64,000 nucleotides of DNA, taken from Eledone cirrhosa. Taxonomy: Eukaryota. The notes under the pieces were generated by a model that saw only the letters and a program-made list of their open reading frames with translations, was not told the DNA's origin and ran no database searches. Position 1 is the first letter of the stretch, and each line of letters starts with the position of its first letter. The position numbers were made by a program, and so were the translations under genes. Shown here piece by piece: positions 16,496 through 62,413 of the stretch. The stretch is taken from the NCBI GenBank assembly GCA_964016885.1, contig OZ024742.1:339636001-339700000 (forward strand), written 5' to 3'.

Positions 16496-16836
16496 TTAAG
16501 GTAAATATTGCTCAAGTTATGCTGGAAGCAGACAAAGGTGAAGAAAAGGAAAAAGAAAAAGAAGAAAAGTCTTTTGTAACTCCAGGTACAAAAACTTTCT
16601 TCACGAGATTTTCTATCAGCACCAATTTCCTCGACAAAGACCCTTCAACATGGAAGGATGATCCTGATTACAAAAGTGGACTTGAAAAACTGGAGAAGAC
16701 AGTTGTTGTGAATGATGTTACAGGATTACAATAACATTCTTACAAAAGATGAAACTGAGAAACAAATTGTTTTACAGATCGTTACCAAAAACCGTAAAAC
16801 ATACCCAACTGCTACTAAATCATCTCTTATGCAAAA

Positions 16837-17187
16837 ATAATTGTTTCTACTTTTGGCACAAGGCCAGCAATTATCCCAATGAATTACTGGTACTTTATTC
16901 TATCGACCCCGGAAGGATGAAAGGCAAAGTTAACCACGGCGGAATTTGAACTCAGATCATACAGGGATATATGATCTTATGAACTCAGATTTTATGCAAA
17001 AATAATTGTTTCTACTTTTGGCACAAGGCCATCAATTATTCCAGTGCATTACTGGTACTTTATTTTATCGACCTCGTAAGGATGAAAGGCAAAGTCAACC
17101 TCGGCGGGATTTGAACTCAGATCGTAAAGGGACGTAACTATGCTGGAAAGCATGGTGTCTGACCCTCTACCGATACTGCCAATCCAC
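16837..17187 (-). mobile_element. Two tandem tRNA-derived SINE copies inserted in the hATm remnant
   Basis: Family match to 1-710; GCAAAAATAAT repeated at 16831, about 16996 and 17188 (target duplication). Confidence 0.85.
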
Positions 17188-20221: not shown

Positions 20222-20597
20222 CTACATGTAAGTGGTGGTGAATAACCTGCCCGACTCTGTCACTTGGGACCAACGACAGTCTTCTTCATTTACTAAAGTA
20301 TTGTTACTATGACCAATTAGCGTAATGAAGTGGATGACATACTGATAAACGGACAGACAGACAAATTTCTGTTTATTTGCCACGAGGGCACAAAAGAAAA
20401 GGACACATACATGGGGGGGGGGGGAGTTTACATAGAAATCGAGTAAAAAAATGTAATAACAAATAAAATTATAACAAAATGGTCCTGAATAAGGAGGGAT
20501 CGTTTTGGGGTCACACACACCCCCGAAAAAAATGTGCGACCCTTCACAACGGGAGCACAAAGAGAGGGTGCTCCCTTCTTCCTTCATCCTTTTCCAC

Positions 20598-23500
20598 CTA
20601 CAAGCTGAGGTAGAGAGAAAGCCCATTCACACGGGCCATTCTCGAAACTTTCATCCACCTTTCATAAAACTGGCTGGGGTGGAGCACCTATCTCTCCATC
20701 CTAATCCTTCTTCCGAAATGGTATCGGAAGAAAAGGACTAGTTGTTGGCCGGAAAGAAAGGTGTCCGACCTCAGCCCTTTTAGACGCGTTCACCATACAA
20801 CCTCTTTTACCATGGCTATTACACAGAGAAAGACCGCCTCTCCTTCATTTTTGAAGGGGGGAGGCGGCTTGATCGTTACAATGGAATCGGTGGTCAACCT
20901 AATTGGTCCCACCCGTGACAGCAGTTGTTCGACATAGCCCCACAGATCGGCAACGCCCGGGCAGTGTACCAATGCGTTCCCGACGGTTTCTCCGAGGGCG
21001 TCGTCGCACCTGCTAACCACCAGCCCTCTATAGAATGACGAAGTGGAGTCTCCACCGATAGCCGGGTCCGTGAGCGCCTGGGCAAACTCGGTGTGCCAGT
21101 CGCCCAGTTTTCTCGGTCTTTGCTTCACCCAGGACGAGACGAGCCTCGGGAAGGCTCGCCTCACAAACGGGGCCCACACCGGTTGACCGGTGAGGAATAC
21201 CTGGAGGTGCCGTAGCCTCAATGCGTGTTTACGCATTTTTATCCACGGCATCCCCAGACCTCCTTTCAAAGGGTGTTGACAGCAGATGGATCTCCTCACC
21301 AGAGGAGACCTCTTCTTCCAAAGGAATTGAAAGAGGGCGCGCTCCATTTTGGCGAGGATCTCATCCGGCCAAGGCACGACAGTCAAGCGGTAATAGATGA
21401 CGGACGCTATGTAAGCGTTCGCCACTTCCGCCCGACCTTTCAAGGATAGTTTGCACTCGGCCCATTTCTGGGTCAGTGCAAACACCCTATCGTAACCTCA
21501 CCACAGTTTTTCTCCACCTGGAGGTCCGGTCCGAACCAGACCCCAAACAACTTCACCGGGCCCTCCGTCCACCGTCCGGGGATACTGTCGGACGACATCA
21601 GTTTGCTCCTCCAATCGCCGAGTTGCAAAGCGACTGAATTGTCTCGGTTCAGCTTAGCCCCTGTCAACCTTTCGTACTCCTCCAATAAGGTGCTGATTGC
21701 CCCGATTTCCGCGGTGGTCGACACAATTACTGTTACGTCATCGGCGTAGGCCGACACCGCTTTGCGGAATCCCGGTTCCAAAGGGATGCCCTGCAACAAC
21801 TCCAACTTCCGCAGTAGTGGCTCGATAGCCAATACATACAGAAGGGAGGAGAGAGGGCACCCCTGTCGGATGGAGCGGGTGATTTCGAACGGCTCCGAGA
21901 GGTACCGTTCACCTTGACTCTAGAGCAGATGCGGCTGTTATGCATGGCAGTGATCCAGCCCCTGAAAATGGGTCCGAAACCAGGCGCCGCTAGTACCGCA
22001 TCCAGGTAACCATGGTCCTCCCTATCGAAAGCTTTAGACTGATCTAAATTTATCAGGGCCCCACCAAAGCCGGGTTCGTTCCCAACCCTCGCTATGATGT
22101 ATCGCATGAGGTGGAGGTTGTCGTGGATGGACCTGGACGGGATAGCGCATGTCTGCGCATCTCCCACCAGGCCCCCCACGACAAGCGCCAACCTCTTCGC
22201 TAACACCTTGGCCAACATCTTTAACTATGGATTTAGCAGAGTTATGGGCCTAAAATTACTAATATCATGCCCCTTGTTCTCGTCCTTCCTCACTAGCGAG
22301 ACTACGCCTTGGTCACAGAACAGGAAATTCTCCCGTTCTGTTGCCAGTTGCAGTAGACCGCCTCGAGGAGATCGGGGAACAAGTCCGGCATATTAATATA
22401 TAGTTCGTAGGGCAGACCATCGAGGCATAGGCTCAGCACGTCCCCTATTTCAACAACTGAGATCGGCCCGTCGCAGGACCTCACCTCCTCGTCTGAAAGA
22501 CGCGGCAGGCCGTCGAGGTATGGACCGAAATTCACATCCCCGACCGGCCCCCCGCCCCTCCCGAACAATCGGGCGAAGTGCCTTTGAAACGCCTCGCACA
22601 TTTGCTTAGGTTCAAGGATCACCCGTCCATCCTGGTCTCGCAAAGACCGGATAGTGGATCTAATCCCACTTTTGGCTTCTGTCAAGCGGGCCCAGCTAAC
22701 AGCTTTGGTCCCCTCGTTTCCCAGAGCACGTATTTTGCTTCGGACAACGCAGCCTTCGTGTTTCGCATCGAAGAACTGGCTCAAAGCCGTTCTCGACGCT
22801 TGCACTCTGGCCACGTTGCCCCTTCTCATTGCCTCTTCAACATTAACTACCAACTCCCTTTCCTTCCTATTTGTATCTGAGGCTAACTACTTACTAACTC
22901 CTATTGAAACTACTCTAATCTCTCTTTTCAGAGAGCCCCACCACCTGCTGTTGACGATGGCGCCCGTCAACCGCTCCTTATCTAAGGTTCTAATCCGGTC
23001 CCTGTAAGCTCTACTTGCCGGTAAGGACAAGTTGAGCTACCAGTAACCGGGTCCCTGCCTATGCGTTCTATCAAGGTGGACTATGCAGGTCACTAACTTG
23101 TGGTCTGAATAGCCCACCATGAGCATTTCTGGACAACTTAAAAAGTCCCTATCCTTAATTCTAACTAAGAACCTATCAAGGTACGATCTAGATTGACCGC
23201 TATGGTTTGTCCAAGTCCAGGTTGGCACAGTCGTAAAATCTAGTCGATATCTATCGGCCAGGTCAAATCGGCCGATTAACCCCTTGAGGTTGTTACACCC
23301 CCCTCTATCGGGACATGCCCCTACATAGTCCCAAAATGCATCTAGGATACCATTCCAGTCATCACTAAAAGCAAGGAGCCCTAGAAAAGTCTCCAGACGA
23401 TGGAAGAAGTCCGACCGCATTGCCTCAAAAGGGGCGTAAACTGCGACCAGCCTAAAAGCTTCGCCTTCACCACTGCCAAGGTCCAGAACCACTAGTCGAC

Positions 23501-23771
23501 CCTCCGGGTCCAAGTGTACCGTCTGTGTAGCGAGACCCAGATGTTTTTGTGGCAGAATGACAACCCCACCCCCACCTCCGGGCTGACAGAGAGATGCGTG
23601 CATCTCAAAGTCATCAAAGGTGGGGGCTAGTTGTTGCACGCTGCTGATCCGGGCCTCGCAAATAGCCATCACATTTATACATCGTGATCTGAGGTCATTT
23701 AGAAGTTTAGCTTGCTTCCAAGGTGAGCCCAGGCCACGCGCATTTAGACAATCTACTCTTAACACAGCCAT
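20598..23771 (-). pseudogene. Tx1 ORF2 (APE endonuclease-reverse transcriptase), frameshifted and deleted
   Basis: MAVLRVDCLNARGL, SYLDRFLV, YSDHK, LDQSKAFDR, SAYADDVT, GGLGMP. Confidence 0.92.
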
Positions 23772-23789
23772 GTTGGTGGTAAAGAAAGA

Positions 23790-25607
23790 GGCACTTACCT
23801 CTCTGCGTCCGGGGTCCGGGCTGTTCAGTTTCCATGGGGGTGGTGGAGGGTGGTTGGGTGGGGTGGTGGTTTGTGGTGGTGTGGGGGTATTAGTGTGTGG
23901 AGGGGTTGGGGTATTTGGAGTTGTGTGGGTGTTTGAGGAGGGGGTGGGTAACCTTTTAAGAGGACGCGGTTAAACGGTTTGTTACAGGGGGGCCCCACGT
24001 CCTCTTTATAAACGTTTTTTAAAGTTTGATAAAGGTTCATGGGGACCTTTATCATTTTGAGGTGTGGAGAGTCATCCACTGTCTTAAAATTTGGCCCTTC
24101 GGTGCAAACCGAAGGGTTGCTGTTTATTATATTGAGCAATTTTTTGTTTTGTTTGTTGATGTAAGTGTACTGTAATGTTTTGTTCTGTGACGCTGTTAGT
24201 GTTGTGTAATGGGGAGGGGTGCTTTGTGTTGTGTTGGTTTCTTCTGTGTTTGTTTGGTTTCTGTTAGTGGTATGTTTCCTTTTTTTTCTTTTTACTGGTC
24301 GGAACGGCTCTCCTTCATCTTCGCTATGCTCCGATGTAAGGAGGTTTTCGTCCGTGTTCGGGGGTAGGGGGATATTTTGTGGTAGTGTTGTGTTGGTGTG
24401 TGTATTTTTGATTGTTTTCTGTGTGGGACGGGTGCGTGTGACTGTGATTTGTTTCGTGGTCTTTTGTTTTTGTTGTTGTTGTGGTGGTGGTGCAGGAGGT
24501 GGTGTTCTTGGATTTTGTTGTCGTGGTGGTGGTGGTGGTGGAGATGGTGTTGTATTTTGTTGTTTTTGTGGTGGTGGTGTTGGTTGTTTTTATTGTTGTT
24601 GTGGTGTTTGTAGTAGTGGTTTTTTTGTTGTTAGTAGAGGGCAGGCAGTCCTCAGGTGATCTCTGCCAGCGCAGTGGTAGCATGAGGGCCTCCTGCCTTC
24701 CACCGTAATATTATTGAAAGTTCGACTATCCAGTAGTACTCGGTCGGGAATTTCGGCGATTTTCTCTGGTGTCCTCTGTATGAGAACCTCCAGACTTTTC
24801 CCCCCCGAACAGTCCACTGGTGGACTCACCTGCTGATACTAGAATGTCCTTTTCTAGGTCCGTGAATCCTGTCAGGACGGACCAGATGTCTACTTCTGGC
24901 GTTGAGCTCCACATTCTTAATCTTTGTGTTCTTCTTCCTTTATATGTGGGGAAAAAGGTGTATTGTGGTGACACTATAGGTGCCACCGAGCATTTTCGAG
25001 CCAGCATTTGGTCCTTCATTCGGACTATAATGCTGGCATAAAGCTTTCCTCTTTCAATAAAGAGTATGTCCTTTATAATGTCTTTCAGAACCAGCTCAAT
25101 TTGACTTTCTGTCAATTGAGCTGGTTTTCTTGTTGCGTTGGATATAATCCTGAAAGTTATAGTATTCCTATATGCCTGTTGACGAACTTCTTCTGAGGAA
25201 TTGATCGTAAAAGAACCATCCTCCCCAAAAGATACGTTTTTTCTGGCATTTAGTAAGTTTTGCTTAGCGTTAGTAATGTCTATGGGTTTGTATTCGATCG
25301 TTTTTTTTACCGTTTGGGCAAAAGAAATTTTGCTGTCTTTGTTGTTTTCGTTTCGTTCATTGTTGTTTGTTGTTGCAATGTTGTTGGTTTTATTAAGTCC
25401 ATTTGTTGTGGTATTTTTTTCCCCGTTATCTTTTTCAAAATTTGGGTTTTCACTCAAATTAACAGACTTTTTCACAGTATTTTTTCCATTCGAGAGGAGG
25501 GGTAGTTCAACAGTTTGAATTGTTGTTCCCTCTTTCCCGCTTTTTTTGGTGGGCGTGGCGTTAGCTTGCAATATGGCTTCCTCGTTTTTAACGATATCAA
25601 TAAACAT
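23790..25607 (-). pseudogene. Tx1 ORF1 (gag-like, zinc knuckle, Pro/Thr linker)
   Basis: Homologous to ORF1 of the array units (RKPAQ..IELVLKD, Y.GRRTQR, VEGRRP.CY.C). Confidence 0.85.
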
Positions 25608-25811
25608 TTTAAATTAAAGATTTTCACCCCAAAAGGGCGAACATATATTTACCCTACGTCTACAGTTCCAGACGAGGGGTTAGAGTCAACAATAATAACA
25701 AAATTCAAATAACGCACTCACAAATGACAAAGTAGTGATCGAAGAGCCGATATGAAAGACGTCCACTATCACACAGACAGAGAGACGGACAGAGAGGTAG
25801 ACAGATAGATA

Positions 25812-26044
25812 TGTTTATTTGCCACAGGAGCGTAAAAAAGTGGGACATTACAAGACGTGATGGCGGCGCTTTTACATAAATATCATATAACTTTAACATT
25901 AATAAATAACAACAAACCATATATAATAAAATAACAATTGAAATCCCCAGTATGGGGCAACGTCGGTAGAACAACCCTGAACACCAGGAACAGGTTTTGT
26001 AGGTGTTCCCGTCTTCCCTCTGTTTATCTTCCTTAACCTAAAGT
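25812..26044 (-). mobile_element. Severely 5'-truncated Tx1 copy (3' UTR only, distinct subfamily)
   Basis: Shares the terminal GTGGCAAATAAA and TGTCCCACTTTT motifs; flanked by GAYA repeats. Confidence 0.65.
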
Positions 26045-26061
26045 CAGACAGACAGATAGAT

Positions 26062-27570
26062 ATGTTTCTCTTTATTTGCCACCAGGGCATCAAAAAGTGG
26101 GACAAGTACAATGGGGGGGGGGGGAGTTTACACAAAAAGGCGAGTAAAGAAAACAAATAACAAATATAAAATTAACAATAAAGTGTGCAACCCCTTCTCC
26201 TCAGTAGCACAGAGAGAGGGTGCTCCCTCGTTCCTTCCTCTTTTCCACCTACAGGCTGATGTAAAGAGAAGGCCCATTCACACGGGCCATTCTCGCCACT
26301 TTCACCCACCTTTCATAAAAACGACTGGGGTGGAGCTCCTCTCTCTTCATCCTGATCCTTCTTCCGAAATGATATCGGAAGAAACGGACCAGTTGTTGGC
26401 CAGAGAGAAAGGTGCCTGACCTCAGTCCTTTCAGACGCGTCCACCATACAACATCTTTCACCATGGCTATTACGCACATAAACACCGCCTCTCCTTCATT
26501 TTTGAAAGGGGGGAGGCGGCTTGATCGTTACAATAGACTCGGTGGTCAACCGGATCGGTCCCAACCTTGACAGCAGTTGTTCGACATAGCACCACAGATC
26601 GGCTACGCCCGAGCAGTGTACCAATGCGTGTGCAACGGTTTCCTCGTCGCACACGCATCTGGGACAGATCTTTTTGGCGGGGTCCCTACCCGGGCGCCCG
26701 TGTCTGTAGAGCTTTTCTCGAACGGGTAGAACCCCTCGGTAGCACTGCCAGGCCAGGGACTTCTGGAAGTTGTCCATAGGTCCCGGGCTGAATGTCCTAC
26801 CGAACAGGCTGGGCAGTTCGTCTTCCTCCATGTCTAGAGCTTCTCCGAGGGCGTCGTCGCCCCTGCAGCGTACCAACCCTCTATAGAATGTTGCGGTGGA
26901 GTCTCCACTGATAACCGGATCCGCCTGCCAGAGGGCGGTGAGCGCCTGGGCACACTCAGTGTGCCAGGCGCCCAGTTTTCTCGGTCTTTGCTTGACCCAG
27001 GATTGCAGCTCGGTGAGTGAGACGAGTCTGGGAAAGGTTCGTCTCACAAACGAGGCCCATACCGGTTGACCGGTGAGGAGTACGTGGAGGTACGATAGCC
27101 TTAATGCGTGTTTACGCATCATTAGCCTCGGCATCCTCAGCCCTCCTTTCAAAGGGTGTTGACAGCAGATGGATCTCCTCACCAAAGGAGCCCGCTTCTT
27201 CCAAAGGAATTGGAAGAGTGCGCGCTGAAGCTTGTTCCACTTCTAGATGTTGAGGCGATGATGTTCGCCCCTCTTTGTCCATGTCTGCTACTACCTGCTG
27301 GTCAAGTAGGCATAGCTTTCCCTTCCCATCTTCTTGTTTTGGCAAAGAAGTAGGTGCTTCGGCCATTTAAAAAAAAATGTACAGTTTTGCAAAATATTTT
27401 GGATGTTTTTGCCCTGAGGGGCACGATATTTTGGAGGACTGACCAGATCAAAATTTGACCTGTCAGTCCCTCTACAAATTGGTATAAAATTAAAAGTTCG
27501 CAATGACGAATTTCTAAGGAAATTAATAAAAAACTTACCGAGCAGGTTTAACAAGTGTCCATCCCAGATC
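26062..27570 (-). mobile_element. Internally deleted Tx1 element (5' UTR and ORF1 start fused to ORF2 3' part)
   Basis: ORF2 3' region 26249-27225; upstream MAEAPTSLPKQ.. from 27366 and the conserved 5'-end motif GACAC-N11-GCTC. Confidence 0.75.
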
Positions 27571-27977
27571 AGATAGTTAGATAGAGACAGACAAGCTATG
27601 GGATAGACAGGTAGACAGTTAGATAGAGAGACAGACAGGCTATGGGATAGACAGGTAGACAGTCAGGTAGAGAGACAGACATGCTATGGGATAGACAGGT
27701 AAACAGTTAGATAGACAGACAGACAGGCTATGGGATAGACAGGTAGACAGTTAGATAGAGAGACAGACAAGCTATGGGATAGACAGGTAGACAGTTAGAT
27801 AGAGAGACAGACAAGCTATGGGATAGACAGGTAGACAGTTAGATAGAGAGACAGACAGGCTATAGGATAGACAGGTAGACAGTTAGATAGAGAGACAGAC
27901 AAGCTATGGGAGAGACAGGTAGACAGTTAGATAGAGAGACAGACAAGCTATGGGATAGACAGGTAGACAGTTAGATA
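27571..27977. repeat. 44-bp satellite GATAGACAGGTAGACAGTTAGATAGAGAGACAGACARGCTATGG, block 1
   Basis: Directly visible tandem units. Confidence 0.95.
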
Positions 27978-29310
27978 TGTTTCTTTTATTTGCCACTAGG
28001 GCATCAACAGTGGGACAAGTACAAAGGGGGGAGTTTACACAAAAAGGCGTCCTCAATAAGGAGGAGCAATAACAAAATATAAAAATAAAATAAGATATAA
28101 CAAAAAATAAAATTTTTAACAAAATCCTCAATAGAGAGGAGGCGCCTTGGGGGGTCGCACACACCCCCGAAAAAAGTGTGCAACCCTTTTCCTCAGGAGC
28201 ACAGAGAGGGGGTGCTCCCTCGTTCCTTCATCTTTTCCACCTACAGGCTTATGTAAAGAGAAGGCCCATTCACACGGGCCATTCTCGCCACTTTCACCCA
28301 CCTTTCATAAAAACGACTGGGGTGCAGCACCTCTCTCTCCATCCTGATCCTTCTTCCGAAATGATATCGGAAGAAACGGACCAGTTGTTGGCCAGAGAGA
28401 AAGGTGCCTGACCTCAGTCCTTTCAGACGCGTCCACCATACAACCTCTTTCGCCATGGCTATTACGCACAGAAACACCGCCTCTGCTTCATTTTTGAAGG
28501 GGGGAGGCGGCTTGATCATTACAATAGACTCGGTGGTCAACCGGATCGGTCCCACCCTTGACAGCAGTTGTTCGACATAGCCCCACAGATCGGCTACGCC
28601 CGAGCAGTGTACCAATGCGTGTGCAACGGTTTCCTCGTCGCACACGCATCTGGGACAGATCTTTTTGGCGGGGTCCCTACCCGGGCGCCCGTGTCTGTAG
28701 AGCCTTTCTCGAACGGGTAAAGCCCCTCGGTAGCACTGCCAGGCCAGGGACTTCTGGAAGTTGTCCATAGGTCCCGGGCTGAATGTCCTACCGAACAGGC
28801 TGGCCAGTTCGTTCTCCTCCATGTCTAGGGCTTCTCCGAGGGCGTCGTCGCACCTGCTGCGTACCAGCCCTCTATAGAATGTTGCGGTGGAGTCTCCACT
28901 GATAACCGGATCCGCCTGCCAGAGGGCGGTGAGCGTCTGGGCACACTCAGTGTGCCAGGCGCCCAGTTTTCTCGGTCTTTGCTTGACCCAGGATTGCAGC
29001 TCGGTGAGTGAGACGAGTCTGGGAAGGTTCGTCTCACAAACGAGGCCCACACCGGTTGTCCGGTGAGGAATACGTAGAGGTGCCGTAGCCTTAATGCGTG
29101 TTTACGCATCATTAGCCACGGCATCCCCAGCCCTCCTTTCGAAGGGTGTTGACAGCAGATGGATCTCCTCACCATAGGAGCCCGCCTCTTCCAAAGGAAT
29201 TGGAAGAGCGCGCGCTCCATCTTGGTGAGGGTTTCCCTTGGGCAGGGCACTACGGTCAGGCGGTAGTAGATGACGGACGCTATATAAGTGTTCGCCACCT
29301 CCGCCCGACC
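27978..29310 (-). mobile_element. 5'-truncated Tx1 copy inserted in the satellite
   Basis: ORF2 C-terminal region with CPRC..ETVAHALVHC zinc finger; same subfamily as 26062-27225. Confidence 0.92.
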
Positions 29311-30316
29311 TTTAGATAGAGAGACAGACAGGCTATGGGATAGACAGGTAGACAGTTAGATAGAGAGACAGACAAGCTATGGGATAGACAGGTAGACAGT
29401 TAGATAGAGAGACAGACAGGCTATAGAATAGACAGGTAGACAGTTAGATAGAGACACAGACAAGCTATGGGAGAGACAGGTAGACAGTTAGATAGAGAGA
29501 CAGACAGGCTATGGGATAGACAGGTAGACAGTTAGATAGAGAGACAGACATGCTATGGGATAGACAGGTAGACAGTTAGATAGAGAGACAGACAAGCTAT
29601 GGGATAGACAGGTAGACAGTTAGATAGAGAGACAGACAGGCTATAGGATAGACAGGTAGACAGTTAGATAGAGAGACAGACAAGCTATGGGAGAGACAGG
29701 TAGACAGTTAGATAGAGAGACAGACAAGCTATGGGATAGACAGGTAGACAGTTAGATAGAGAGACAGACAGGCTATGGGATAGACAGGTAGACAGTTAGA
29801 TAGAGAGACAGACAGGCTATGGGAGAGACAGGTAGACAGTTAGATAGAGAGACAGGCTATGGGAGAGACAGGTAGACAGTTAGACAGAGAGACAGACAGG
29901 CCATGGGAGAGACAGGTAGAAAGTTAGATAGAGAGACAGACAAGCTATGGGATAGACAGGTAGACAGTTAGATAGAGAGAGAGACAAGCTATGGGATAGC
30001 CAGGTAGACAGTTAGATAGAGAGACAGACAAGCTATGGGATAGACAGGTAGACAGTTAGATAGAGAGACAGACAGGCTATGGGAGAGACAGGTAGACAGT
30101 TAGACAGAGAGACAGACAGTCTATGGGATAGACAGGTAGACAGTTAGATAGAGAGACAGACAAGCTATGGGATAGACAGGTAGACAGTTAGATAGAGAGA
30201 CAGACAGGCTATGGGAGAGACAGGTAGACAGTTAGACAGAGAGACAGACAGTCTATGGGAGAGACAGGTAGACAGTTAGACAGAGAGACAGACAGTCTAT
30301 GGGAGAGACAGGTAGA
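29311..30316. repeat. 44-bp satellite, block 2
   Basis: Directly visible tandem units. Confidence 0.95.
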
Positions 30317-30546
30317 TTTCTATTTATTTGCCACGAGGGCACAAAAGAAGGGGACATTTACACAGTGGGTGAGTTTACATAAATCGAGTAAAGAAAAAAG
30401 GAATAACAATAATAATATAACAATAAAAAGTCCTCAAAAGGGAGGGGGCGTGTTGGGGATTGCACATACCCCCGAAAAGTGTGCAACTCTTTTCGCGGGG
30501 GAAGCCCAGAGAGGAGGCGCTCCCCCTTTCCTCTTCACTTCTTCAC

Positions 30547-33500: not shown

Positions 33501-33985
33501 AGCACCCTCTATCGGGACATGCCCCTGCATAGTCCCAACGCGCATCTAGGATTCGATTCCAGTCCCCCACTAAAAGCAGGGAACGTGACGTTCCTAGAAA
33601 AGTCTCCAGACGCTGGAAGAAGTCGGCTCTTTCCGCCCCGAAGGGGGCATAAAGACCGACCAGTCTGAAAGCCCCGCATTCACCGCCTCCGACGTCCAGC
33701 ACCAGTAATCGACCCCCCGGGTCCGAGTGAACAATCTGTACGTCGAGAGTCAGACGTTTATCCAGCAGTACGGCAACTCCCCCCCCCCGCCTCCGGGTTG
33801 ACAGAGAGATGCGTGCATCTCAAAGTCATCGAAGGCGGGCGCCAGCTGTCTCACGCTGCTGATCCGACTCTCGCAAACAAGCATCACATCTATACTTTGT
33901 GATCTGAGGTCATTTAGAAGCTTTGCTTGCTTCCAAGCTGAGCCCAGGCCACGCGCGTTCAAACGGCCAACTCTCAATTGATCTA
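30547..33985 (-). pseudogene. Unit A ORF2 (APE-RT-zinc finger), disrupted
   Basis: Stops at 31135 and 32842 and a G-run frameshift near 33780; APE, YADD and CCHC motifs present. Confidence 0.9.
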
Positions 33986-35826: not shown

Positions 35827-36273
35827 GCTGCTAAGAAAGAAATTTTTCGGCAAAAAAATAGATATTTATTTTACCCCCTAAAAAGGGGGTAAATGCAAAA
35901 ATGTTTCCCTAAATAACAGGGGTTAGTGTTCCAAATGTGTTGCACTGAAAAATTTATCCGGTACTTACAATAGTAAGGGTAAATCCCGATGGAATAGCGG
36001 AGCCGATGTGAAGCGTGTCTCTCTATCTATCAAGATAGATAAATTTCTATTTATTTGCCACGAGGGCACAAAAGAAGGGGACATTTACACAGTGGGGGAG
36101 TTTACATAAATCGAGTAAAGAAAAAAGGAATAACAATAATAATATAACAATAAAAAGTCCTCAAAAGGGAGGGGGCGTGTTGGGGATTGCACATACCCCC
36201 GAAAAGTGTGCAACTCTTTTCGCGGGGGAAGCCCAGAGAGGAGGCGCTCCCCCTTTCCTCTTCACTTCTTCAC

Positions 36274-39200
36274 CTACAGAACAATGTAGAGAGAAGGCCC
36301 ATTTACACGGGCCATTCTCGCTTCTTTCACCCACCTTTCATAAAACTGCCTGGGGCCAAGCACTTCTCTCTCCATCCTGATCCTTCTTCCGAAGTGGTAT
36401 CGGAAGAAGTAAACCAGGTGATGGCCGGAGAGAAAGTCACCCGACCTCAGACCTTTCAGGCGCGTCCACCACACAACCTCTTTCATCATGGCTATTACGC
36501 ACAGAAAGACCGCCTCTGCTTCATTTCTGAAGGGAGGAGGCGGCTTGATGTTCACCACAGACTCGGCGGTTAATCGAATCGGCGCCACACGCGACAGCAG
36601 TCGTTCGACGTAGCCCCACAGATCGGCAACGCCCGGGCAGTGTACCAGTGCATGCGCAACGGTTTCCTCGTCGCGCACGCATCTGGGACAGATCTTTTTC
36701 GCGGGATCCCTGCCCGGGCGCCCGTGTCTGTAGAGCTTTTCTCGAACGGGCAGAGCCCCCCGGTAACACTGCCAGGCTAGGGACCTCTGGAAGTTGTCCA
36801 TGGGTCCCGGGCCGAAAGTTCTACCGAACAGGCTGGCCAGTTCGTCCTCCTCCATGCCTAGCTACTCTCCAAGGGTGTCGTCGCCATTGCTAGCCACCAA
36901 CCCTCTATAGAATGTCGAGGTGGATTCTCCACTGATAGTCGGGTCCGCTTGCCAGATAGCCGTGAGCGCCTGGGCACACTCGGTGTGCCAGTTGCCCAGT
37001 TTTCTCGGTCTTTGCTTCACCCAGGATTGCAGTTCGGTGAGCGAGACGAGCTGTGGGAAGGCTCGCCTCACAAACGGGGCCCACACCGGCTGACCGTTGA
37101 GGAATACCTGTAGATGCCGTAGCCTCAATGCGTGCCTACGCATCAACAGCCACGGCATACCCAGCCCTCCTTTCGAAGGGTGCTGGCAGCAGATGGATCT
37201 CCTCACCATGGGAGGCCGCTTCTTCCAGAGGAACTGGAAGAGCATGCGTTCCATGATGGTGAGCTTTTCCTTGGGGCAAGGCACGACGGTCAGGCGGTAG
37301 TAGATGACGGACGCTATGTAAGCGTTCGTCACCTCCGCCCGACCTTTCAGTGATAGTTTGCACTTGGCCCACTTCTGGGTCAGCGCAAACACCCTGCTCG
37401 TCACCTCGCCCCAATTCTTCTCCACCTGGAGGTCCGGTCCGAACCAGATCCCGAGCAGCTTCACCGGGCCCTCCGTCCACCGCCCGACGACACCGTCTAA
37501 CGGCATCGGTTTGCCCCTCCACGTTCCGAGTTTCAAACCGACTGACTTGTCCTGGTTCAGCCTAGCCCCCGTCAGCCTTTCGTATTCCCCCAGTAGGGTG
37601 GCGATCGCCCCGATTTCCGAGGCGTCCGCCACCATTACTGTTACGTCGTCGGCATAGGCCGAGACCGCTTTGTGCAATCCCGGTTCCAGGGGTATGCCCC
37701 GCAGCAACTCCAACTTCCGCAGCAGTGGCTCGAGAGTCAATACGTACAGAAGGGAGGAGAGGGGGCACCCCTGCCTGATGGACCGGGTGATTTGAAACGG
37801 CTCCGAGAGGTAGCCGTTTACTTTAATCCTAGAGTAGATGTTGCCACTGTGCATGGCAGAAATCCAGCCCCTGAAAACGGGTCCGAAGCCCGCCGCCGCT
37901 AGCACCCCATCCAGGTAACCATGGTCGACCCTATCGAACGCCTTAGATTGATCCAAGTTGATCAGGGCCCCACCAAAGTCGGGTTCGTTGCCAACCCTCT
38001 CTACGATGTATCGCATGAGGTGGAGGTTGTCGCGAATGGACCTGGACGGGATAGCGCATGTCTGCGCGTCTCTCACCAAACCACCCACCACAAGCGCCAA
38101 CCTCTTCGCCAACACCTTGGCCAAAATCTGTAACTCTGCATTTAGCAGAGTTATGGGCCTAAAGTTACTTAAGTCGTCCCCTTTGCTCTCGTCCTTCCTC
38201 ACTAGCGTGACCACGCCCTTGGTCACAGAACAGGGAATTCTCCCGTTCTGTTGCCAGTTGCAATAGACAGCCTCGAGGAGTTCGGAGAACAAGTCCGGCA
38301 TAGCTAAATAAAGTTCGTATGGTAGACCATCGAGACCCGGAGATTTGCGTCTGCTGCATTGGCTGAGCGCTTCCCCGATTTCAGTGGTTGTGATTGGCCT
38401 TTCGCAGCACTCCGCTTCGCCCCTCGAAAGACGCGGTAGACCGTCGAGGTATGGACCGAAGTCCACATCCCCGTCCGGCCCCCCGCCCCCTCCGAACAGT
38501 CGAGCAAAGTACCTTTGAAAGGCCTCGCACATCCGCTCAGGTTCAAGGATCACCCGTCCATCCTGGTCTCGCAAAGACCGAATGGTGGATTTAATCCCAC
38601 TCTTGGCTTCTGTCACGCGGGCCCAGCTAACAGCTTTGGTCCCCTCGTTTCCTAAAGCACGTATTTTACTTCGGACAACGCAGCCTTCGTGCTTCGCGTC
38701 AAAGAACTGGCTCAACGCCGTTCTCGCCGCTAACACTCTGGCTACGTCTCCGCTCCTAATCGCCTCTTCTAGTTTATCCGTTAAATCCCTTTCCTTCCTA
38801 TTTCTATTTGCCGCTAGTTCCTTACTGTAACCTATCGAACTTACTCTAATCTCTCTCTTTAGAGATACCCACCACCTACTGTTGACGATCGCTCCCGTCA
38901 ACCGCATCTTAACTAAGCTACTAATCCGGTTTCTGTAATCTTTCTTTGTCGGCAAGGACAAGTTCATCTTCCAGTAACCGGGACCCTGTCTATGCGTTCT
39001 ATCAAGGTTGACCACGCAGGTCACTAATTTGTGATCTGAATAGCCAACCATGATCAGTTCTGGACAACTAAATATGTCCCTATCCTTACTCCTAACCAAA
39101 AACCTATCTAGGTACGATCTAGATTGTCCACTGCGGTTTGCCCAGGTCCAGGTTGGCGCAGTTGGACAATCTAGTCGAAATCTCTCGACCAGGTCGAATC

Positions 39201-39715
39201 GATCGAGTAACCCCTTGAGGCTGCTACACCCCCCCTCTATCGGGACATGCCCCTGCATAGTCCCAACGCGCATCTAGGATTCGATTCCAGTCCCCCACTA
39301 AAAGCAGGGAACACGACGTTCCTAGAAAAGTCTCCAGACGCTGGAAGAAGTCGGCTCTTTCCGCCCCGAAGGGAGCATAAAGACCGACCAGTCTGAAAGC
39401 CCCGCCTTCACCGCCTCCGACGTCCAGCACCAGTAATCGACCCCCCGGGTCCGAGTGAACAATCTGTACGTCGAGAGTCAGACGTTTATCCAGCAGTACG
39501 GCAACTCCCCCCCCCCCCGCCTCCGGGTTGACAGAGAGATGCGTGCATCTCAAAGTCATCGAAGGCGGGCGCCAGCTGTCTCACGCTGCTGATCCGACTC
39601 TCGCAAACAACCATCACATCTATACTTTGTGACCTGAGGTCACTTAGAAGCTTTGCTTGCTTCCAAGCTGAGCTCAGGCCACGCGCGTTCAAACAGCCAA
39701 CTCTCAATTGATCTA
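36274..39715 (-). pseudogene. Unit B ORF2, disrupted
   Basis: 803-aa open stretch 36862-39273; TAG at 36862 shared with unit A; homopolymer frameshifts near 39230 and 39510. Confidence 0.9.
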
Positions 39716-41542
39716 TTTTGGTGTTGAAAGTGAAGAAAGAAAAGCACTTACCTCTCCGGGTTGCGTAATTTCCATGGCATCAGGTGTGTTGGGTGGAGGG
39801 ATGTTTTGTGGTGGTGTGGGGGTACACGTGTGTGGTGGGGTTGGGGTATTTGGAGTTGTGTCAGGGAGAGGGGCGGTTATGGGGAAATCTTTCAAGAGGA
39901 CGCGATTCAACGGTTTTAAACAGGGGGGGCTCACGTCCCGTCTAAATTGTTCTTTTAAGGAACGATAAAGGTCCAGAGGGACCTTTATCATTTTTAAATG
40001 GGTGAAGTTCTCTGTTGAGATAAAGTTTGGCCCTTCGGTCTGCACCATAGGGTTATTGTTTATTAATTTAACCAGTTTTTTGTTTTCTTTATTTATATAT
40101 GTGTATTGCAACGTCTTTTTTTGTGATGCTGTCAATGTTTCGGAGAGGGGAGGCGCAGATTTATTTTTGTTTGTTGAGGGTGGGGTGTTTTTGATTGGAG
40201 TTGGTGTTTGTGTGTGGGTTATTTGTGGTGTGCTGGGTGTGTGTTTTCTTTTTTTTCTTTTAACTTGTCTGAAGGCTTCTCCTTCTTCTTCAGAAGTTGG
40301 GGGAAACTCTTCAGCGCTAGGTGGGAGGGACGTGTTGTGTGGTTGTTTTTTTTTGCGGGAGGGGTAGATTTGTTACTGTTTTTTTTATTATTTGTTTGGA
40401 ATGGGTTTTGTGGTGGTGGTGGTAATGTTTGTGTCGTGCTTGTGGTTGGTGATGGTGGTGTTTGTGTTGTGGTTGGTGGTGGTGATTTTTGTGTCGTGCT
40501 TGTGTTTGGTGCTGGTGGTGGTGATGTTTGTGTTGTGTTTGTGGTTGGTGGTGTCTGTATTTTGTTTGCTGTGTGTGGTATTAGTGTATTTTTGGAGGTG
40601 GGTGGTGTTGGTGTACTGTTTGTGGTGGGTGTGGGCAATAGTCCTTTTTGGGGGATACGTTTCGGGCAGTTAGCCTTAACGTGTCCCCTTTCCATGCATA
40701 AATAGCATGCTGGTCTTCTCCCCTCTACAATTATGTCTATTGGGGTAAGGTCATCCAGCCAGAAGCGATCCGGGATTTGTGCTATTCTTTCGGGCCTCAT
40801 TTGGACTAGTATGTCGAGGCCCATTCCCAGGAACGCATCTCCAGTTGCCTTCCCCATTGACAGCATTGTGTCTTCGCCCATATCTATGAAGCCAGCAATA
40901 GCCCACCAGAAGTCCATTGTGGGCAGCATTGTTTTTACTTTTACTCTCTGTGTTCTTCTACCCATGTAGGAGGGATAGAAGCTATATGTTGTCGATGAGA
41001 GTGGGCTTAAGGAAAGCTTCTCCGCCGTTTCCTTGTCTCTTGTTAGGACCGAAATGCTGCCATAGAGTCGGTCCTTTCGTATGAAGAGAATATTCTTCAT
41101 ATAGTCTTTTAGGACTAACTCTATTTCCATTTGGCTGGGCTGTGCTGGCTTTCTTGTCTGGTTCAGTATAGTTCTGTAGAGAACTGTGTTTTCTGCTCTG
41201 GCTTTCTTGAATTCTGGGGGGGGGGGGGGAGTTAATGGAAAACATTCCGTTCTCCCCCAAAACAATGTGTTTCTTTGCTTCGGCCAGTTTTTCTCTGGCG
41301 GCAGTTAGGTCAATTGGTGTGTATGTAATGGATTGTTTTGTTTTCTGGGCGAAAGTTGCCCTGTTGTTATTTGTATTATTTTCTGTTTGTTTGTTTTCTG
41401 TTTGCTCATTTTCCTTAACATTTGTTTTTTCATTTTCTTTGTTTGTTTCATTGTCTAATTTTATTGTAATTATTTTTTGTTCTTCAGACTTGGGGGGCGT
41501 GGCAGAGCTAATGGCAGACATGTCTGCCATCTTTTCCGCCAT
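39713..41542 (-). pseudogene. Unit B ORF1, disrupted
   Basis: MAEKMAD..; C-run frameshift near 41220; -1 break near 40350. Confidence 0.85.
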
Positions 41543-41981
41543 GCTGCCAAGAAAGAAATTTTTCGGCAAAAATAGATATTTATTTTACCCCCTAAAAAGG
41601 GGGTAAATGCAAAAATGTTTCCCTAAAAAACAGGGGTTAGTGTTCCAAATGTGTTGCACTGAAAAATTTATCCGGTACTTACAATAGTAAGGGTAAATCC
41701 CGATGGAATAGCGGAGCCGATGTGAAGCGTGTCTTACTCTATCAAGATAAATTTCTATTTATTTGCCACGAGGGCACAAAAGAAGGGGACATTTACACAG
41801 TGGGGGAGTTTACATAAATCGAGTAAAGAAAAAAGGAATAACAATAATAATATAACAATAAAAAGTCCTCAAAAGGGAGGGGGCGTGTTGGGGATTGCAC
41901 ATACCCCCGAAAAGTGTGCAACTCTTTTCGCGGGGGAAGCCCAGAGAGGAGGCGCTCCCCCTTTCCTCTTCACTTCTTCAC

Positions 41982-44900
41982 CTACAGAACAATGTAGAGA
42001 GAAGGCCCATTTACACGGGCCATTCTCGCTTCTTTCACCCACCTTTCATAAAACTGTCTGGGACCAAGCACTTCTCTCTCCATCCTGATTCTTCTTCCGA
42101 AGTGGTATCGGAAGAAGTAAACCAGGTGATGGCCGGAGAGAAAGTCACCCGACCTCAGACCTTTCAGGCGCGTCCACCACACAACCTCTTTCATCATGGC
42201 TATTACGCACAGAAAGACCGCCTCTGCTTCATTTCTGAAGGGAGGAGGCGGCTTGATGTTCACCACAGACTCGGCGGTTAATCGAATCGGCGCCACACGC
42301 GACAGCAGTCGTTCGACGTAGCCCCACAGATCGGCAACGCCCGGGCAGTGTACCAGTGCATGCGCAACGGTTTCCTCGTCGCGCACGCATCTGGGACAGA
42401 TCTTTTTCGCGGGATCCCTGCCCGGGCGCCCGTGTCTGTAGAGCTTTTCTCGAACGGGCAGAGCCCCCCGGTAACACTGCCAGGCTAGGGACCTCTGGAA
42501 GTTGTCCATGGGTCCCGGGCCGAAAGTTCTACCGAACAGGCTGGCCAGTTCGTCCTCCTCCATGCCTAGCGACTCTCCAAGGGTGTCGTCGCCCTTGCTA
42601 GCCACCAACCCTCTATAGAATGTCGAGGTGGATTCCCCACTGATAGTCGGGTCCGCTTGCCAGATAGCCGTGAGCGCCTGGGCACACTCGGTGTGCCAGT
42701 TGCCCAGTTTTCTCGGTCTTTGCTTCACCCAGGATTACAGTTCGGTGAGCGAGACGAGCTGTGGGAAGGCTCGCCTCACAAACGGGGCCCACACCGGCTG
42801 ACCGTTGAGGAATACCTGTAGATGCCGTAGCCTCAATGCGTGCCTACGCATCAACAGCCACGGCATACCCAGCCCTCCTTTCGAAGGGTGCTGGCAGCAG
42901 ATGGATCTCCTCACCATGGGAGGCCGCTTCTTCCAGAGGAACTGGAAGAGCATGCGTTCCATGATGGTGAGCTTTTCCTTGGGGCAAGGCACGACGGTCA
43001 GGCGGTAGTAGATGACGGACGCTATGTAAGCGTTCGTCACCTCCGCCCGACCTTTCAGTGATAGTTTGCACTTGGCCCACTTCTGGGTCAGCGCAAACAC
43101 CCTGCTCGTCACCTCGCCCCAATTCTTCTCCACCTGGAGGTCCGGTCCGAACCAGACCCCGAGCAGCTTCACCGGGCCCTCCGTCCACCGCCCGACGACA
43201 CCGTCTAACGGCATCGGTTTGCCCCTCCACGTTCCGAGTTGCAAACCGACTGACTTGTCCTGGTTCAGCTTAGCCCCCGTCAGCCTTTCGTATTCCTCCA
43301 GTAGGGTGGCGATCGCCCCGATTTCCGAGGCGTCCGCCACCATTACTGTTACGTCGTCGGCATAGGCCGAGACCGCTTTGTGCAATCCCGGTTCCAGGGG
43401 TATGCCCCGCAGCAACTCCAACTTCCGCAGCAGTGGCTCGAGAGTCAATACGTACAGAAGGGAGGAGAGGGGGCACCCCTGTCTGATGGATCGGGTGATT
43501 TGAAACGGCTCCGAGAGGTAGCCGTTTACTTTAATCCTAGAGTAGATGTTGCCACTGTGCATGGCAGAAATCCAGCCCCTGAAAACGGGTCCGAAGCCCG
43601 CCGCCGCTAGCACCGCATCCAGGTAACCATGGTCGACCCTATCGAACGCCTTAGATTGATCCAAGTTGATCAGGGCCCCACCAAAGCCGGGTTCGTAGCC
43701 AACCCTCTCTATGATGTATCGCATGAGGTGGAGGTTGTCGTGAATGGACCTGGACGGGATAGCGCATGTCTGCGCGTCTCCCACCAAACCACCCACCACA
43801 AGCGCCAACCTCTTCGCCAACACCTTGGCCAAAATCTGTAACTCTGCATTCAGCAGAGTTATGGGCCTAAAGTTACTTAAGTCGTCCCCCTTGCTCTCGT
43901 CCTTCCTCACTAGCGTGACCACGCCCTTGGTCACAGAACAGGGAATTCTCCCGTTCTGTTGCCAGTTGCAATAGACAGCCTCGAGGAGTTCGGAGAACAA
44001 GACCGGCATAGCTAAATAAAGTTCGTATGGTAGACCATCGAGACCCGGGGATTTGCGTCTGCTGCATTGGCTGAGCGCTTCCCCGATTTCAGTGGCTGTG
44101 ATTGGCCCTTCGCAGCACTCCGCTTCGCCGCTCGAAAGACGCGGTAGACCGTCGAGGTATGGACCGAAGTCCACATCCCCGTCCGGCCCCCCGCCACCTC
44201 CGAACAGTCGAGCAAAGTGCCTTTGAAAGGTCTCGCACATTCGCTCAGGTTCAAGGATCACCCGTCCATCCTGGTCTCGCAAAGACCGAATGGTGGATTT
44301 AATCCCACTCTTGGCTTCTGTCACGCGGGCCCAGCTAACAGCTTTGGTCCCCTCGTTTCCTAAAGCACGTATTTTACTTCGGACAACGCAGCCTTCGTGC
44401 TTCGCGTCAAAGAACTGGCTCAATGCCGTTCTCGTCGCTAACACTCTGGCTACGTCTCCGCTCCTAATCGCCTCTTCTAGTTTATCTGTTAACTCCCTTT
44501 CCCTCCTATTTCTATTCGCCGCTAGTTCCTTACTGTAACCTATCGAACTTACTCTAATCTCTCTCTTTAGAGATATCCACCACCTACTGTTGACGATCGC
44601 TCCCGTCAACCGCATCTTAACTAAGCTACTAATCCGGTTTCTGTAATCTTTCTTTGTCGGTAAGGACAAGTTCATCTTCCAGTAACCGGGACCCTGTCTA
44701 TGCGTTCTATCAAGGTTGACCACGCAGGTCACTAATTTGTGATCTGAATAGCCAACCATGATCAGTTCTGGACAACTAAATACGTCCCTATCCTTACTCC
44801 TAACCAAAAACCTATCTAGGTACGATCTAGATTGTCCACTGCGGTTTGCCCAGGTCCAGGTTGGCGCAGTTGGACAATCTAGTCGAAATCTATCGACCAG

Positions 44901-45422
44901 GTCGAATCGATCGAGTAACCCCTTGAGGCTGCTACACCCCCCTCTATCGGGACATGCCCCTGCATAGTCCCAACGCGCATCTAGGATTCCATTCCAGTCC
45001 CCCACTAAAAGCAGGGAACGCGACGTTCCTAGAAAAGTCTCCAGACGTTGGAAGAAGTCGGCTCTTTCCGCCCCGAAGGGAGCATAAAGACCGACCAGTC
45101 TGAAAGCCCCGCCTTCACCACCTCCGACGTCCAGCACCAGTAATCGACCCCCCGGGTCCGAGTGAACAATCTGTACGTCGAGAGTCAGACGTTTATCCAG
45201 CAGTACGGCAACTCCCCCCCCCCCCGCCTCCGGGTTGACAGAGAGATGCGTGCATCTCAAAGTCATCGAAGGCGGGCGCCAGCTGTCTCACGCTGCTGAT
45301 CCGACTCTCGCAAACAACCATCACATCTATACTTTGTGACCTGAGGTCACTTAGAAGCTTTGCTTGCTTCCAAGCTGAGCTCAGGCCACGCGCGTTCAAA
45401 CAGCCAACTCTCAATTGATCTA
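41982..45422 (-). pseudogene. Unit C ORF2, nearly intact
   Basis: 843-aa open stretch 42735-45266; CAA>TAA at 42735; G-run frameshift near 45220. Confidence 0.9.
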
Positions 45423-47246
45423 TTTTGGTGTTGAAAGTGAAGAAAGAAAAGCACTTACCTCTCCGGGTTGCGTAATTTCCATGGCATCAGGTGTGTTGGG
45501 TGGAGGGATGTTTTGTGGTGGTGTGGGGGTACACGTGTGTGGTGGGGTTGGGGTATTTGGAGTTGTGTCAGGGAGAGGGGCGGTTATGGGGAAATCTTTC
45601 AAGAGGACGCGATTCAACGGTTTTAAACAGGGGGGGCTCACGTCCCGTCTAAATTGTTCTTTTAAGGAACGATAAAGGTCCAGAGGGACCTTTATCATTT
45701 TTAAATGGGTGAAGTTCTCTGTTGAGATAAAGTTTGGCCCTTCGGTCTGCACCATAGGGTTATTGTTTATTAATTTAACCAGTTTTTTGTTTTCTTTATT
45801 TATATATGTGTATTGCAACGTCTTTTTTTGTGATGCTGTCAATGTTTCGGAGAGGGGAGGCGCAGATTTATTTTTGTTTGTTGAGGGTGGGGTGTTTTTG
45901 ATTGGAGTTGGTGTTTGTGTGTGGGTTATTTGTGGTGTGCTGGGTGTGTGTTTTCTTTTTTTTCTTTTAACTTGTCTGAAGGCTTCTCCTTCTTCTTCAG
46001 AAGTTGGGGGAAACTCTTCAGCGCTAGGTGGGAGGGACGTGTTGTGTGGTTGTTTTTTTTTGCGGGAGGGGTAGATTTGTTACTGTTTTTTTTATTATTT
46101 GTTTGGAATGGGTTTTGTGGTGGTGGTGGTAATGTTTGTGTCGTGCTTGTGGTTGGTGATGGTGGTGTTTGTGTTGTGGTTGGTGGTGGTGATTTTTGTG
46201 TCGTGCTTGTGTTTGGTGCTGGTGGTGGTGATGTTTGTGTTGTGTTTGTGGTTGGTGGTGTCTGTATTTTGTTTGCTGTGTGTGGTATTAGTGTATTTTT
46301 GGAGGTGGGTGGTGTTGGTGTACTGTTTGTGGTGGGTGTGGGCAATAGTCCTTTTTGGGGGATACGTTTCGGGCAGTTAGCCTTAACGTGTCCCCTTTCC
46401 ATGCATAAATAGCATGCTGGTCTTCTCCCCTCTACAATTATGTCTATTGGGGTAAGGTCATCCAGCCAGAAGCGATCCGGGATTTGTGCTATTCTTTCGG
46501 GCCTCATTTGGACTAGTATGTCGAGGCCCATTCCCAGGAACGCATCTCCAGTTGCCTTCCCCATTGACAGCATTGTGTCTTCGCCCATATCTATGAAGCC
46601 AGCAATAGCCCACCAGAAGTCCATTGTGGGCAGCATTGTTTTTACTTTTACTCTCTGTGTTCTTCTACCCATGTAGGAGGGATAGAAGCTATATGTTGTC
46701 GATGAGAGTGGGCTTAAGGAAAGCTTCTCCGCCGTTTCCTTGTCTCTTGTTAGGACCGAAATGCTGCCATAGAGTCGGTCCTTTCGTATGAAGAGAATAT
46801 TCTTCATATAGTCTTTTAGGACTAACTCTATTTCCATTTGGCTGGGCTGTGCTGGCTTTCTTGTCTGGTTCAGTATAGTTCTGTAGAGAACTGTGTTTTC
46901 TGCTCTGGCTTTCTTGAATTCTGGGGGGGGGGGAGTTAATGGAAAACATTCCGTTCTCCCCCAAAACAATGTGTTTCTTTGCTTCGGCCAGTTTTTCTCT
47001 GGCGGCAGTTAGGTCAATTGGTGTGTATGTAATGGATTGTTTTGTTTTCTGGGCGAAAGTTGCCCTGTTGTTATTTGTATTATTTTCTGTTTGTTTGTTT
47101 TCTGTTTGCTCATTTTCCTTAACATTTGTTTTTTCATTTTCTTTGTTTGTTTCATTGTCTAATTTTATTGTAATTATTTTTTGTTCTTCAGACTTGGGGG
47201 GCGTGGCAGAGCTAATGGCAGACATGTCTGCCATCTTTTCCGCCAT
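45420..47246 (-). pseudogene. Unit C ORF1, disrupted
   Basis: Essentially the same as unit B ORF1. Confidence 0.85.
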
Positions 47247-47453
47247 GCTGCCAAGAAAGAAATTTTTCGGCAAAAATAGATATTTATTTTACCCCCTAAA
47301 AAGGGGGTAAATGCAAAAATGTTTCCCTAAAAAACAGGGGTTAGTGTTCCAAATGTGTTGCACTGAAAAATTTATCCGGTACTTACAATAGTAAGGGTAA
47401 ATCCCGATGGAATAGCGGAGCCGATGTGAAGCGTGTCTTACTCTATCAAGATA

Positions 47454-48446
47454 AATTTCTATTTATTTGCCACGAGGGCACAAAAGAAGGGGACATTTAC
47501 ACAGTGGGGGAGTTTACATAAATCGAGTAAAGAAAAAAGGAATAACAATAATAATATAACAATAAAAAGTCCTCAAAAGGGAGGGGGCGTGTTGGGGATT
47601 GCACATACCCCCGAAAAGTGTGCAACTCTTTTCGCGGGGGAAGCCCAGAGAGGAGGCGCTCCCCCTTTCCTCTTCACTTCTTCACCTACAGAACAATGTA
47701 GAGAGAAGGCCCATTTACACGGGCCATTCTCGCTTCTTTCACCCACCTTTCATAAAACTGTCTGGGACCAAGCACTTCTCTCTCCATCCTGATTCTTCTT
47801 CCGAAGTGGTATCGGAAGAAGTAAACCAGGTGATGGCCGGAGAGAAAGTCACCCGACCTCAGACCTTTCAGGCGCGTCCACCACACAACCTCTTTCATCA
47901 TGGCTATTACGCACAGAAAGACCGCCTCTGCTTCATTTCTGAAGGGAGGAGGCGGCTTGATGTTCACCACAGACTCGGCGGTTAATCGAATCGGCGCCAC
48001 ACGCGACAGCAGTCGTTCGACGTAGCCCCACAGATCGGCAACGCCCGGGCAGTGTACCAGTGCATGCGCAACGGTTTCCTCGTCGCGCACGCATCTGGGA
48101 CAGATCTTTTTCGCGGGATCCCTGCCCGGGCGCCCGTGTCTGTAGAGCTTTTCTCGAACGGGCAGAGCCCCCCGGTAACACTGCCAGGCTAGGGACCTCT
48201 GGAAGTTGTCCATGGGTCCCGGGCCGAAAGTTCTACCGAACAGGCTGGCCAGTTCGTCCTCCTCCATGCCTAGCGACTCTCCAAGGGTGTCGTCGCCCTT
48301 GCTAGCCACCAACCCTCTATAGAATGTCGAGGTGGATTCCCCACTGATAGTCGGGTCCGCTTGCCAGATAGCCGTGAGCGCCTGGGCACACTCGGTGTGC
48401 CAGTTGCCCAGTTTTCTCGGTCTTTGCTTCACCCAGGATTACAGTT
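47454..48446 (-). mobile_element. Tx1 array unit D (3' about 1 kb only)
   Basis: Matches the 3' end of unit C including the TAA lesion; ends at ACAGTT microhomology with the satellite. Confidence 0.93.
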
Positions 48447-51220: not shown

Positions 51221-51445
51221 AGAGTCAGACAGACAGACTGACAGGGGGACAGACAGACGTGCAAACCGACAGGTAGATAGTCAAAATAGTCAGACAGTTA
51301 GTCAGAGAGGTAGAAAGACAGTCATACATACATACAAGCAGACAGAAATGTATGTATGTATGTTGTATGTATGTTGTATGTATGTTGTATGTATATATGT
51401 ATGTATGTATTTATGTATGTATGTATATATGTATATGTATGTCAT

Positions 51446-58400: not shown

Positions 58401-58469
58401 ACGTTAAAGATTCAGATGTTTATATAACGTGCAGCTATTTACACTGTAATATAAAATGAATTTTATATT

Positions 58470-62377: not shown

Positions 62378-62413
<36 letters not shown>

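Follow-up and report, generated by a model that had tools for sequence, protein, structure and literature searches.

Does a retrotransposon seek out a tetranucleotide repeat, make that repeat as its own tail, or simply persist where insertions do little harm? This question is raised by the window examined here, the whole 64,000-nucleotide (nt) stretch of contig OZ024742.1 (assembly GCA_964016885.1, positions 339,636,001 to 339,700,000 of the forward strand), in which self-comparison resolved eight minus-strand copies (A–H) of a long interspersed nuclear element (LINE) between 20364 and 48446. These copies are likely to be Tx1-like LINEs of the apurinic/apyrimidinic endonuclease (APE) type, placed in one GAYA tract at AGATA or AGACA by an endonuclease that nicks right after the pentamer. 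At this locus the preference for AGATA^ (the caret marking the nick) is precise and real; the same AGATA/AGACA preference across the genome would be an extrapolation from it.

The copies and their junctions

An earlier sequence-only reading of the window had listed eight 3' ends on one strand, each next to GAYA-type sequence, without poly(A) and shortly after AATAAA. The ends and the strand are confirmed, with 26062 corrected to 26063 (Table 1); poly(A) is absent from all copies (0/8), and the elements end 2–8 nt past AATAAA. The adjoining sequence follows the claim at seven of the eight copies, whose left flanks terminate in AGAYA, as AGATA at six and as AGACA at one. Four subfamilies can be distinguished: A, B, C/D (93% alike) and E–H (99–100%). 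As proposed, they share target and strand, and they also use the same register; that they differ in age, as the earlier reading had it, may be so. Over the 3' 630 nt, A, C/D and E–H are mutually 77–85% alike, and the distant homology of copy B is genuine (score 65–72, against 33–43 for the best of 300 shuffles). Stops or frameshifts break every full-length copy, A being the most damaged. In copy C, an internal deletion would join the 3' part to the probable 5' end of its own subfamily.

Both sides of the insertions carry the pentamer. An exact 5-nt AGATA duplication surrounds C, D, F, G and H (5/8 copies), and copy A is bracketed by ACAGACA, with one extra base; in all, target duplications are found at 6/8 copies, with 3 nt common to both flanks at E and none at B. 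Copy D splits the satellite precisely: GTT-AGATA closes the left array and AGATA-GAG opens the right one, with a 2-nt microhomology at the 5' joint. At H, the satellite also resumes at AGATA, and the 5' joint shows a 6-nt microhomology with it (ACAGTT).

When the elements are removed, their flanks form one GAYA-rich tract of 4,389 nt that consists mostly of a 44-bp satellite; its plus strand contains 472 AGAYA, its minus strand 0. AGAYA ends at 10.8% of positions inside this tract, and chance would place at least four of five events there with p=6e-4, or at least six of seven with p=1e-5. AGATA is favoured over AGACA: it makes up only 94 of the 472 sites yet four of the five AGAYA-type junctions (p=0.007, post hoc). 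A pentamer, AGATA and then AGACA, within a degenerate GAYA tract and a 44-bp satellite describes the target better than pure (GATA)n/(GACA)n does.

Outside 20300–48500, scans of the window gave no match to open reading frame 2 (ORF2) and only one weak match to the untranslated regions (UTRs), 25 nt long and AT-rich (62401–62425). The TA, CA, TACA and GAA tracts are thus empty, as the earlier reading held, and the GA/TC tracts of the window contain no insertion.

Other tandem sequences of the window include a (TGATGG)n array adjoining copy A (18679–20221) and minisatellites of 21 bp, 38 bp and 19/20 bp (56071–57097, 57369–58401 and 11306–12413, respectively), all without insertion. Degenerate tandem units of 204 bp and 165 bp lie at 4–707 and 16827–17132 and may resemble octopus short interspersed nuclear elements (SINEs).

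The 5' ends have features of their own. A, E, F and G start with TGATAG, which is able to pair with the adjoining AGATA flank as a hairpin, and the first 15 nt of E are a perfect inverted copy of GATA-plus-satellite sequence, giving a hairpin arm of 15 nt had satellite followed. What follows E is a 9-nt spacer, AGATAGATA. At the 3' end, a stem-loop around GCCAC/GGCA is unsupported in all five folds (z −1.3 to +0.4). A splice-donor-like GTAAGT occurs in the 5' UTR at sense positions 33 (C) and 63–65 (E, G); the same motif occurs just before ORF2 (A, G) and in the 5' UTR of the sister family described below.

Insertion events and a proposed mechanism

Counting the copies as eight insertions in one orientation, and treating this as evidence, did not survive closer comparison. 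The single orientation follows from a single tract with all AGAYA on one strand, so it was rejected as separate evidence. Independence of the eight insertions was rejected as well, E–H being a DNA-level mosaic with common stops. G and H are identical over 993/993 nt. F and G show no substitution from alignment column 3373 to the 5' end and more than 40 differences in the 3' part; the 5' stretch without substitution measures 2.2 kb between F and G, and the E–H stack contains 3.2 kb without substitution. With A, C and D as reference, E and F have 14 derived sites in common within the 3' 2.5 kb. Copy F is accordingly a mosaic, its 3' half sister to E and its 5' half identical to G, and one ORF2 stop is common to E and F, another to G and H. 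Unequal exchange or conversion is suggested by the inactivating changes common to several copies and by affinities that switch, and an assembly artefact may lie behind the near-identity of F, G and H. The joint at 47454 repeats the one at 41750 and should be counted once, so the events number five to seven rather than eight. As for the stacking order, growth to the right fits E as the most damaged copy, with its spacer; growth to the left fits the 6-nt microhomology of H with the satellite.

A mechanism can be proposed by analogy with established target-primed reverse transcription. A plus-strand nick (the element's bottom strand) at AGATA^ would prime reverse transcription of an RNA ending without poly(A), and a second nick, 5 nt off, would duplicate the pentamer. 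Truncated cDNAs would join by microhomology. Each duplication would rebuild the target, allowing later copies to land head to tail, and unequal exchange or gene conversion might afterwards homogenise E–H, as in R1 arrays.

Coding content, clade and relatives

ORF2 matches the Pfam families Exo_endo_phos (3e-8), RVT_1 (3e-24) and zf-RVT (4e-6); its best solved-structure match is human L1 ORF2p (5e-47), and among named proteins those of Argonauta hians come closest (63–68%), which makes an octopod host probable. An N-terminal APE, a reverse transcriptase (RT) and a C-terminal zinc region are the domain content of the L1 group (L1 and Tx1 clades), and 5' truncation (B, D and H) combined with short target duplications likewise agrees with that group. 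ORF1 contains a CX2CX4HX4C knuckle in A, E and G, with feature matches to zf-CCHC clusters at 0.92 and no Pfam match at E<=0.001. The Tx1 clade is linked with a CCHC-knuckle ORF1 rather than with the L1 type composed of coiled coil, RRM and CTD.

All trees were quick trees with anchors defined by behaviour (U1- and 5S-inserted elements). Tx1 families carry names such as Mutsu and Dewa; no named Tx1 reference stood among the rows, and none of 30 clusters checked by name was named as one. In a tree of 24 of 33 rows, with two long branches and seven further rows dropped (the latter for speed), the window lineage grouped with the U1-/5S-inserted elements, apart from vertebrate L1 and a Ciona-seeded set, at support 99. 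A second tree gave the same split from vertebrate L1 (support 98), and a third agrees. Joining the lineage with vertebrate L1, a label that rests on one source name (P0536) and on support 100 for that group, was rejected by the approximately unbiased (AU) test (p=0.0008). Joining the group with L082, which is sister to L085 in another tree, is a candidate placement that was not rejected (AU p=0.26). The poly(A) feature of vertebrate L1 is likewise missing. A Tx1-type preference for repeated sequence is seen at this locus only (7/8 copies at AGAYA); for a genome-wide preference, the published criterion is >20% of flanks (PMC4494074). Overall, domain content and behaviour-anchored trees make Tx1 membership probable, not proven. 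That much of the sequence-only assignment stands. In its behaviour the lineage works like a target-specific Tx1.

A profile search recovered 54 loci, on contigs that look eukaryotic but had been binned with bacterial genomes. The nearest is a sister family at about 45% identity to the window lineage (tree support 99–100), with mostly intact ORF2, which forms long head-to-tail arrays with a period of 6.4–6.9 kb and array-specific spacers at the joints. More distant relatives (27–32% identity) are inserted in U1, U2 and 5S genes; those at the U1 start comprise several families in a U2-U1-5S array. L082, L091 and L085 are close relatives (support 100), and the position of the first two in U1 versus the third in U2 raises the possibility of a recent target switch. 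U1-specific LINEs of Tx1 type may so far be undescribed: in the part of a 2015 source at hand, the only U1-targeting element named is the DNA transposon Dada-U1 (PMC4640811).

Table 1. Positions of the copies, their coding regions, the satellite arrays and related loci. Window coordinates are given for features of the window; the first coordinate of each copy is its 3' end.
Feature	Location	Strand	Description
Copy A	20364..25771	-	full-length (5.4 kb), degenerate; ORF1 with CCHC knuckle; ORF2 with frameshifts and stops
Copy B	25812..26043	-	232-nt 5'-truncated 3' UTR, distant subfamily
Copy C	26063..27570	-	3' 1.15 kb plus 350 nt (27219-27570) resembling its own subfamily's 5' end
Copy D	27978..29313	-	5'-truncated; interrupts satellite unit in register
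Copy E	30317..36032	-	full-length; ORF2 stops 32844 and 31137; 3' end 2 nt short
Copy F	36042..41744	-	full-length mosaic; ORF2 stop 36864, also in E
Copy G	41750..47448	-	full-length, least damaged; ORF2 stop 42737, also in H
Copy H	47454..48446	-	5'-truncated; identical to 3' 993 nt of G
5' ends with TGATAG	36018-36041, 41738-41749, 47442-47453, 25766-25771		
ORF2 of copy G	41982..45420 (approximate)	-	APE endonuclease, RT, zf-RVT; one G-run frameshift and one stop
ORF1 region of copy G	45420..47246 (approximate, frameshifted)	-	CX2CX4HX4C knuckle, T/P-rich tail
44-bp GAYA-derived satellite, array 1	27571..27977	+	
44-bp satellite, array 2	29314..30316	+	
44-bp satellite, array 3	48447..51245	+	about 64 units; grades into degenerate GAYA sequence to ~51330
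Sister family	G001 contigs C3-C19; loci L041-L078, L095-L106		contigs binned into a bacterial genome
Relatives at the 5' end of U1	L084, L086, L087, L088, L093 (e.g. L088 4677-8500)		APE LINEs; 3' end adjoins U1 start; duplication ~13-16 nt
Relatives ending inside U1	L082 (3' end near 6010), L091 (near 7270)		
Relative ending inside U2	L085 (near 3520)		
5S relative	L089 4422-4534		1284-amino-acid ORF2 element, short A tail, adjoins 5S rRNA gene
Metagenome loci with the same 19-nt end motif	L001, L002, L006-L010, L014, L016, L018, L020, L022, L023, L027, L029		at what seem to be termini of other repeats; neither ORF2 homology nor GAYA flanks

Competing accounts and known systems

Several observations weigh against a repeat-targeting lineage. 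The left flank of E ends in GGTAGA, not AGAYA, and copy B, with its AGATA flank, lacks a clean duplication. A tract at ~56–57 kb with 52 minus-strand AGAYA carries no insertion. Since this cluster was the reason for choosing the window, the p-values are optimistic. The evidence comes from one locus only, no further locus of this family appearing in the searches made: scanning for the 3'-end motif returned 29 metagenome loci, none with ORF2 homology or a match of >23 nt, 11 genome loci, in bacterial or archaeal records, and 0 viral loci, and neither a single-protein search nor a viral locus search gave a match. TRTCT is found in 0/60 junction readings of the sister family (overlapping loci with many re-counts, 21 distinct 10-mers); since that family stacks without TRTCT, stacking appears to be a habit of the lineage, and the GAYA preference is not lineage-wide. 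With the long-branch rows included, the tree position also moved, and in one tree the window lineage fell outside a 96-supported group of the anchors and vertebrate L1. Of the GATA/GACA specificity proposed by the sequence-only reading, it is the local register (p 6e-4 to 1e-5) that holds, the family-wide claim resting on a single locus.

Three other accounts of the cluster must be considered. The locus could be a local sink: satellite that tolerates insertions would have retained a handful with weak site preference, DNA duplication would have raised their number, and the family would be dispersed elsewhere. The DNA-level homogenisation of E–H and the sister-family arrays at unrelated non-GAYA sites speak for it, as do 421 recent L1-Tx1 insertions of 13 families in Octopus vulgaris, annotated without target analysis in the part of the source at hand (PMC13282606). 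It leaves unexplained why one and the same pentamer adjoins the ends of A, B, C and D, which represent three subfamilies, and why the TA, CA, TACA and GAA tracts are empty, and we consider it improbable.

Pairing between RNA and DNA could instead set the junction, a proposal that we find about as doubtful: read-through past a weak AATAAA into the duplicated TATCT would let the transcript anneal to the AGATA nick, with an endonuclease that is loosely purine-preferring. Cleavage usually falls further downstream of AATAAA, so that flank sequence would enter the RNA. Ends lying so close behind AATAAA, the lack of poly(A) and the odd joint of E, readable as a 2-nt microhomology, are all in its favour. 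The second joint, however, is precise too (the 5-nt duplication of five copies), which 3' pairing alone does not set, and such pairing can coexist with a specific nick.

That GAYA is an element-made tail is hardly credible: the missing poly(A), the repeat sequence after the 3' end and the frequency of microsatellites at RTE ends (PMC9115989) invite the comparison, but flanks vary from copy to copy and the pentamer also stands at 5' joints, truncated copies included; C, D and H largely refute it. Because the pentamer is duplicated on either side of the copies and D breaks the 44-bp unit in register, the repeat is older than the insertions, in agreement with the earlier view of a target rather than a tail.

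Specific nicking at AGATA/AGACA, the preferred account, places the lineage among known target-specific elements. Keno is a U2 small nuclear RNA (snRNA)-specific Tx1 (PMC4494074, PMC4640811). An Rfam search of the window returned no U2 or other match, that is, no insertion of the Keno kind. The 3' flank of the Keno-like, U2-inserted L085 reads AG-TATCTGTTCTT, in which TATCTGTTCTT opens with TATCT, the pentamer of the window target; for Keno/Utopia, the flank has been published as beginning at U2 nt 39, 2 nt inside this pentamer (PMC4640811). The cluster could represent a retrotransposon lineage dedicated to GATA/GACA repeats, the first of its kind. In this scenario an octopod branch, its endonuclease reading only the AGATA core of a Keno-like U2 site, would have moved from an snRNA gene to GATA microsatellites and satellites, its copies starting with an inverted target (TGATAG) and the site being rebuilt for the next copy. 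We regard this extended scenario as unlikely, and the lead from L085 is weakened because the sister family uses other sites.

Stacking has precedents in the R1 array of Drosophila and in tandem SINEU-3 copies, mobilised by Tx1, where head-to-tail copies form around a target duplication (bioRxiv 10.1101/158386; PMC4494074). As in those systems, the copies here are set apart by the target duplication and then expanded or homogenised by unequal exchange, and a LINE stack is seen being homogenised inside a satellite. Unlike in R1, the duplication is 5 nt rather than 33 nt, the clade is another one, and the window stack has only four copies.

Microsatellite targeting is also known from Waldo (ACAY), Mino (AC), Dong (TAA) and Togen (TG), which belong to other clades and use other units, GATA/GACA not being among those named in the parts of the sources at hand (PMC3812793, PMC4640811). 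A review describes the STITCHR survey as covering elements with a restriction-like endonuclease (RLE) (PMC13708176). No GATA- or GACA-targeting retrotransposon was found in the literature seen, searches aimed at one returning 0 papers, and the target figure and supplements of PMC4494074 may list more targets; this is a known kind of element whose target has probably gone undescribed. Because the concept is established, only a link to the U2 site that proves true would make the advance more than incremental. How APE targets change for microsatellites is poorly understood (PMC3812793), and a sister at 45% identity with other sites, together with the relatives in U1, U2 and 5S, offers a close natural comparison for such change.

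The closest parallels are Kibi on (TC)n and Koshi on (TTC)n of teleosts and the crocodilian Tx1 families on (TTCC)n/(TTTC)n (PMC4494074, PMC3812793), all non-long-terminal-repeat elements of APE and Tx1 type that land in simple repeats, as the window copies do. The window lineage departs from them in its unit, its probably octopod host and the 44-bp satellite that is also hit, a comparison of targets and hosts rather than of sequences. Its flanks read TATCT/TGTCT rather than (TC)n or (TTC)n, and the GA/TC and GAA tracts stand empty. On the sense strand, (TATC)n/(TGTC)n differs from the crocodilian (TTTC)n by one base per unit; if the preference is true of the lineage, it would add (TATC)n/(TGTC)n to the Tx1 series of (TC)n, (TTC)n and (TTTC)n/(TTCC)n.

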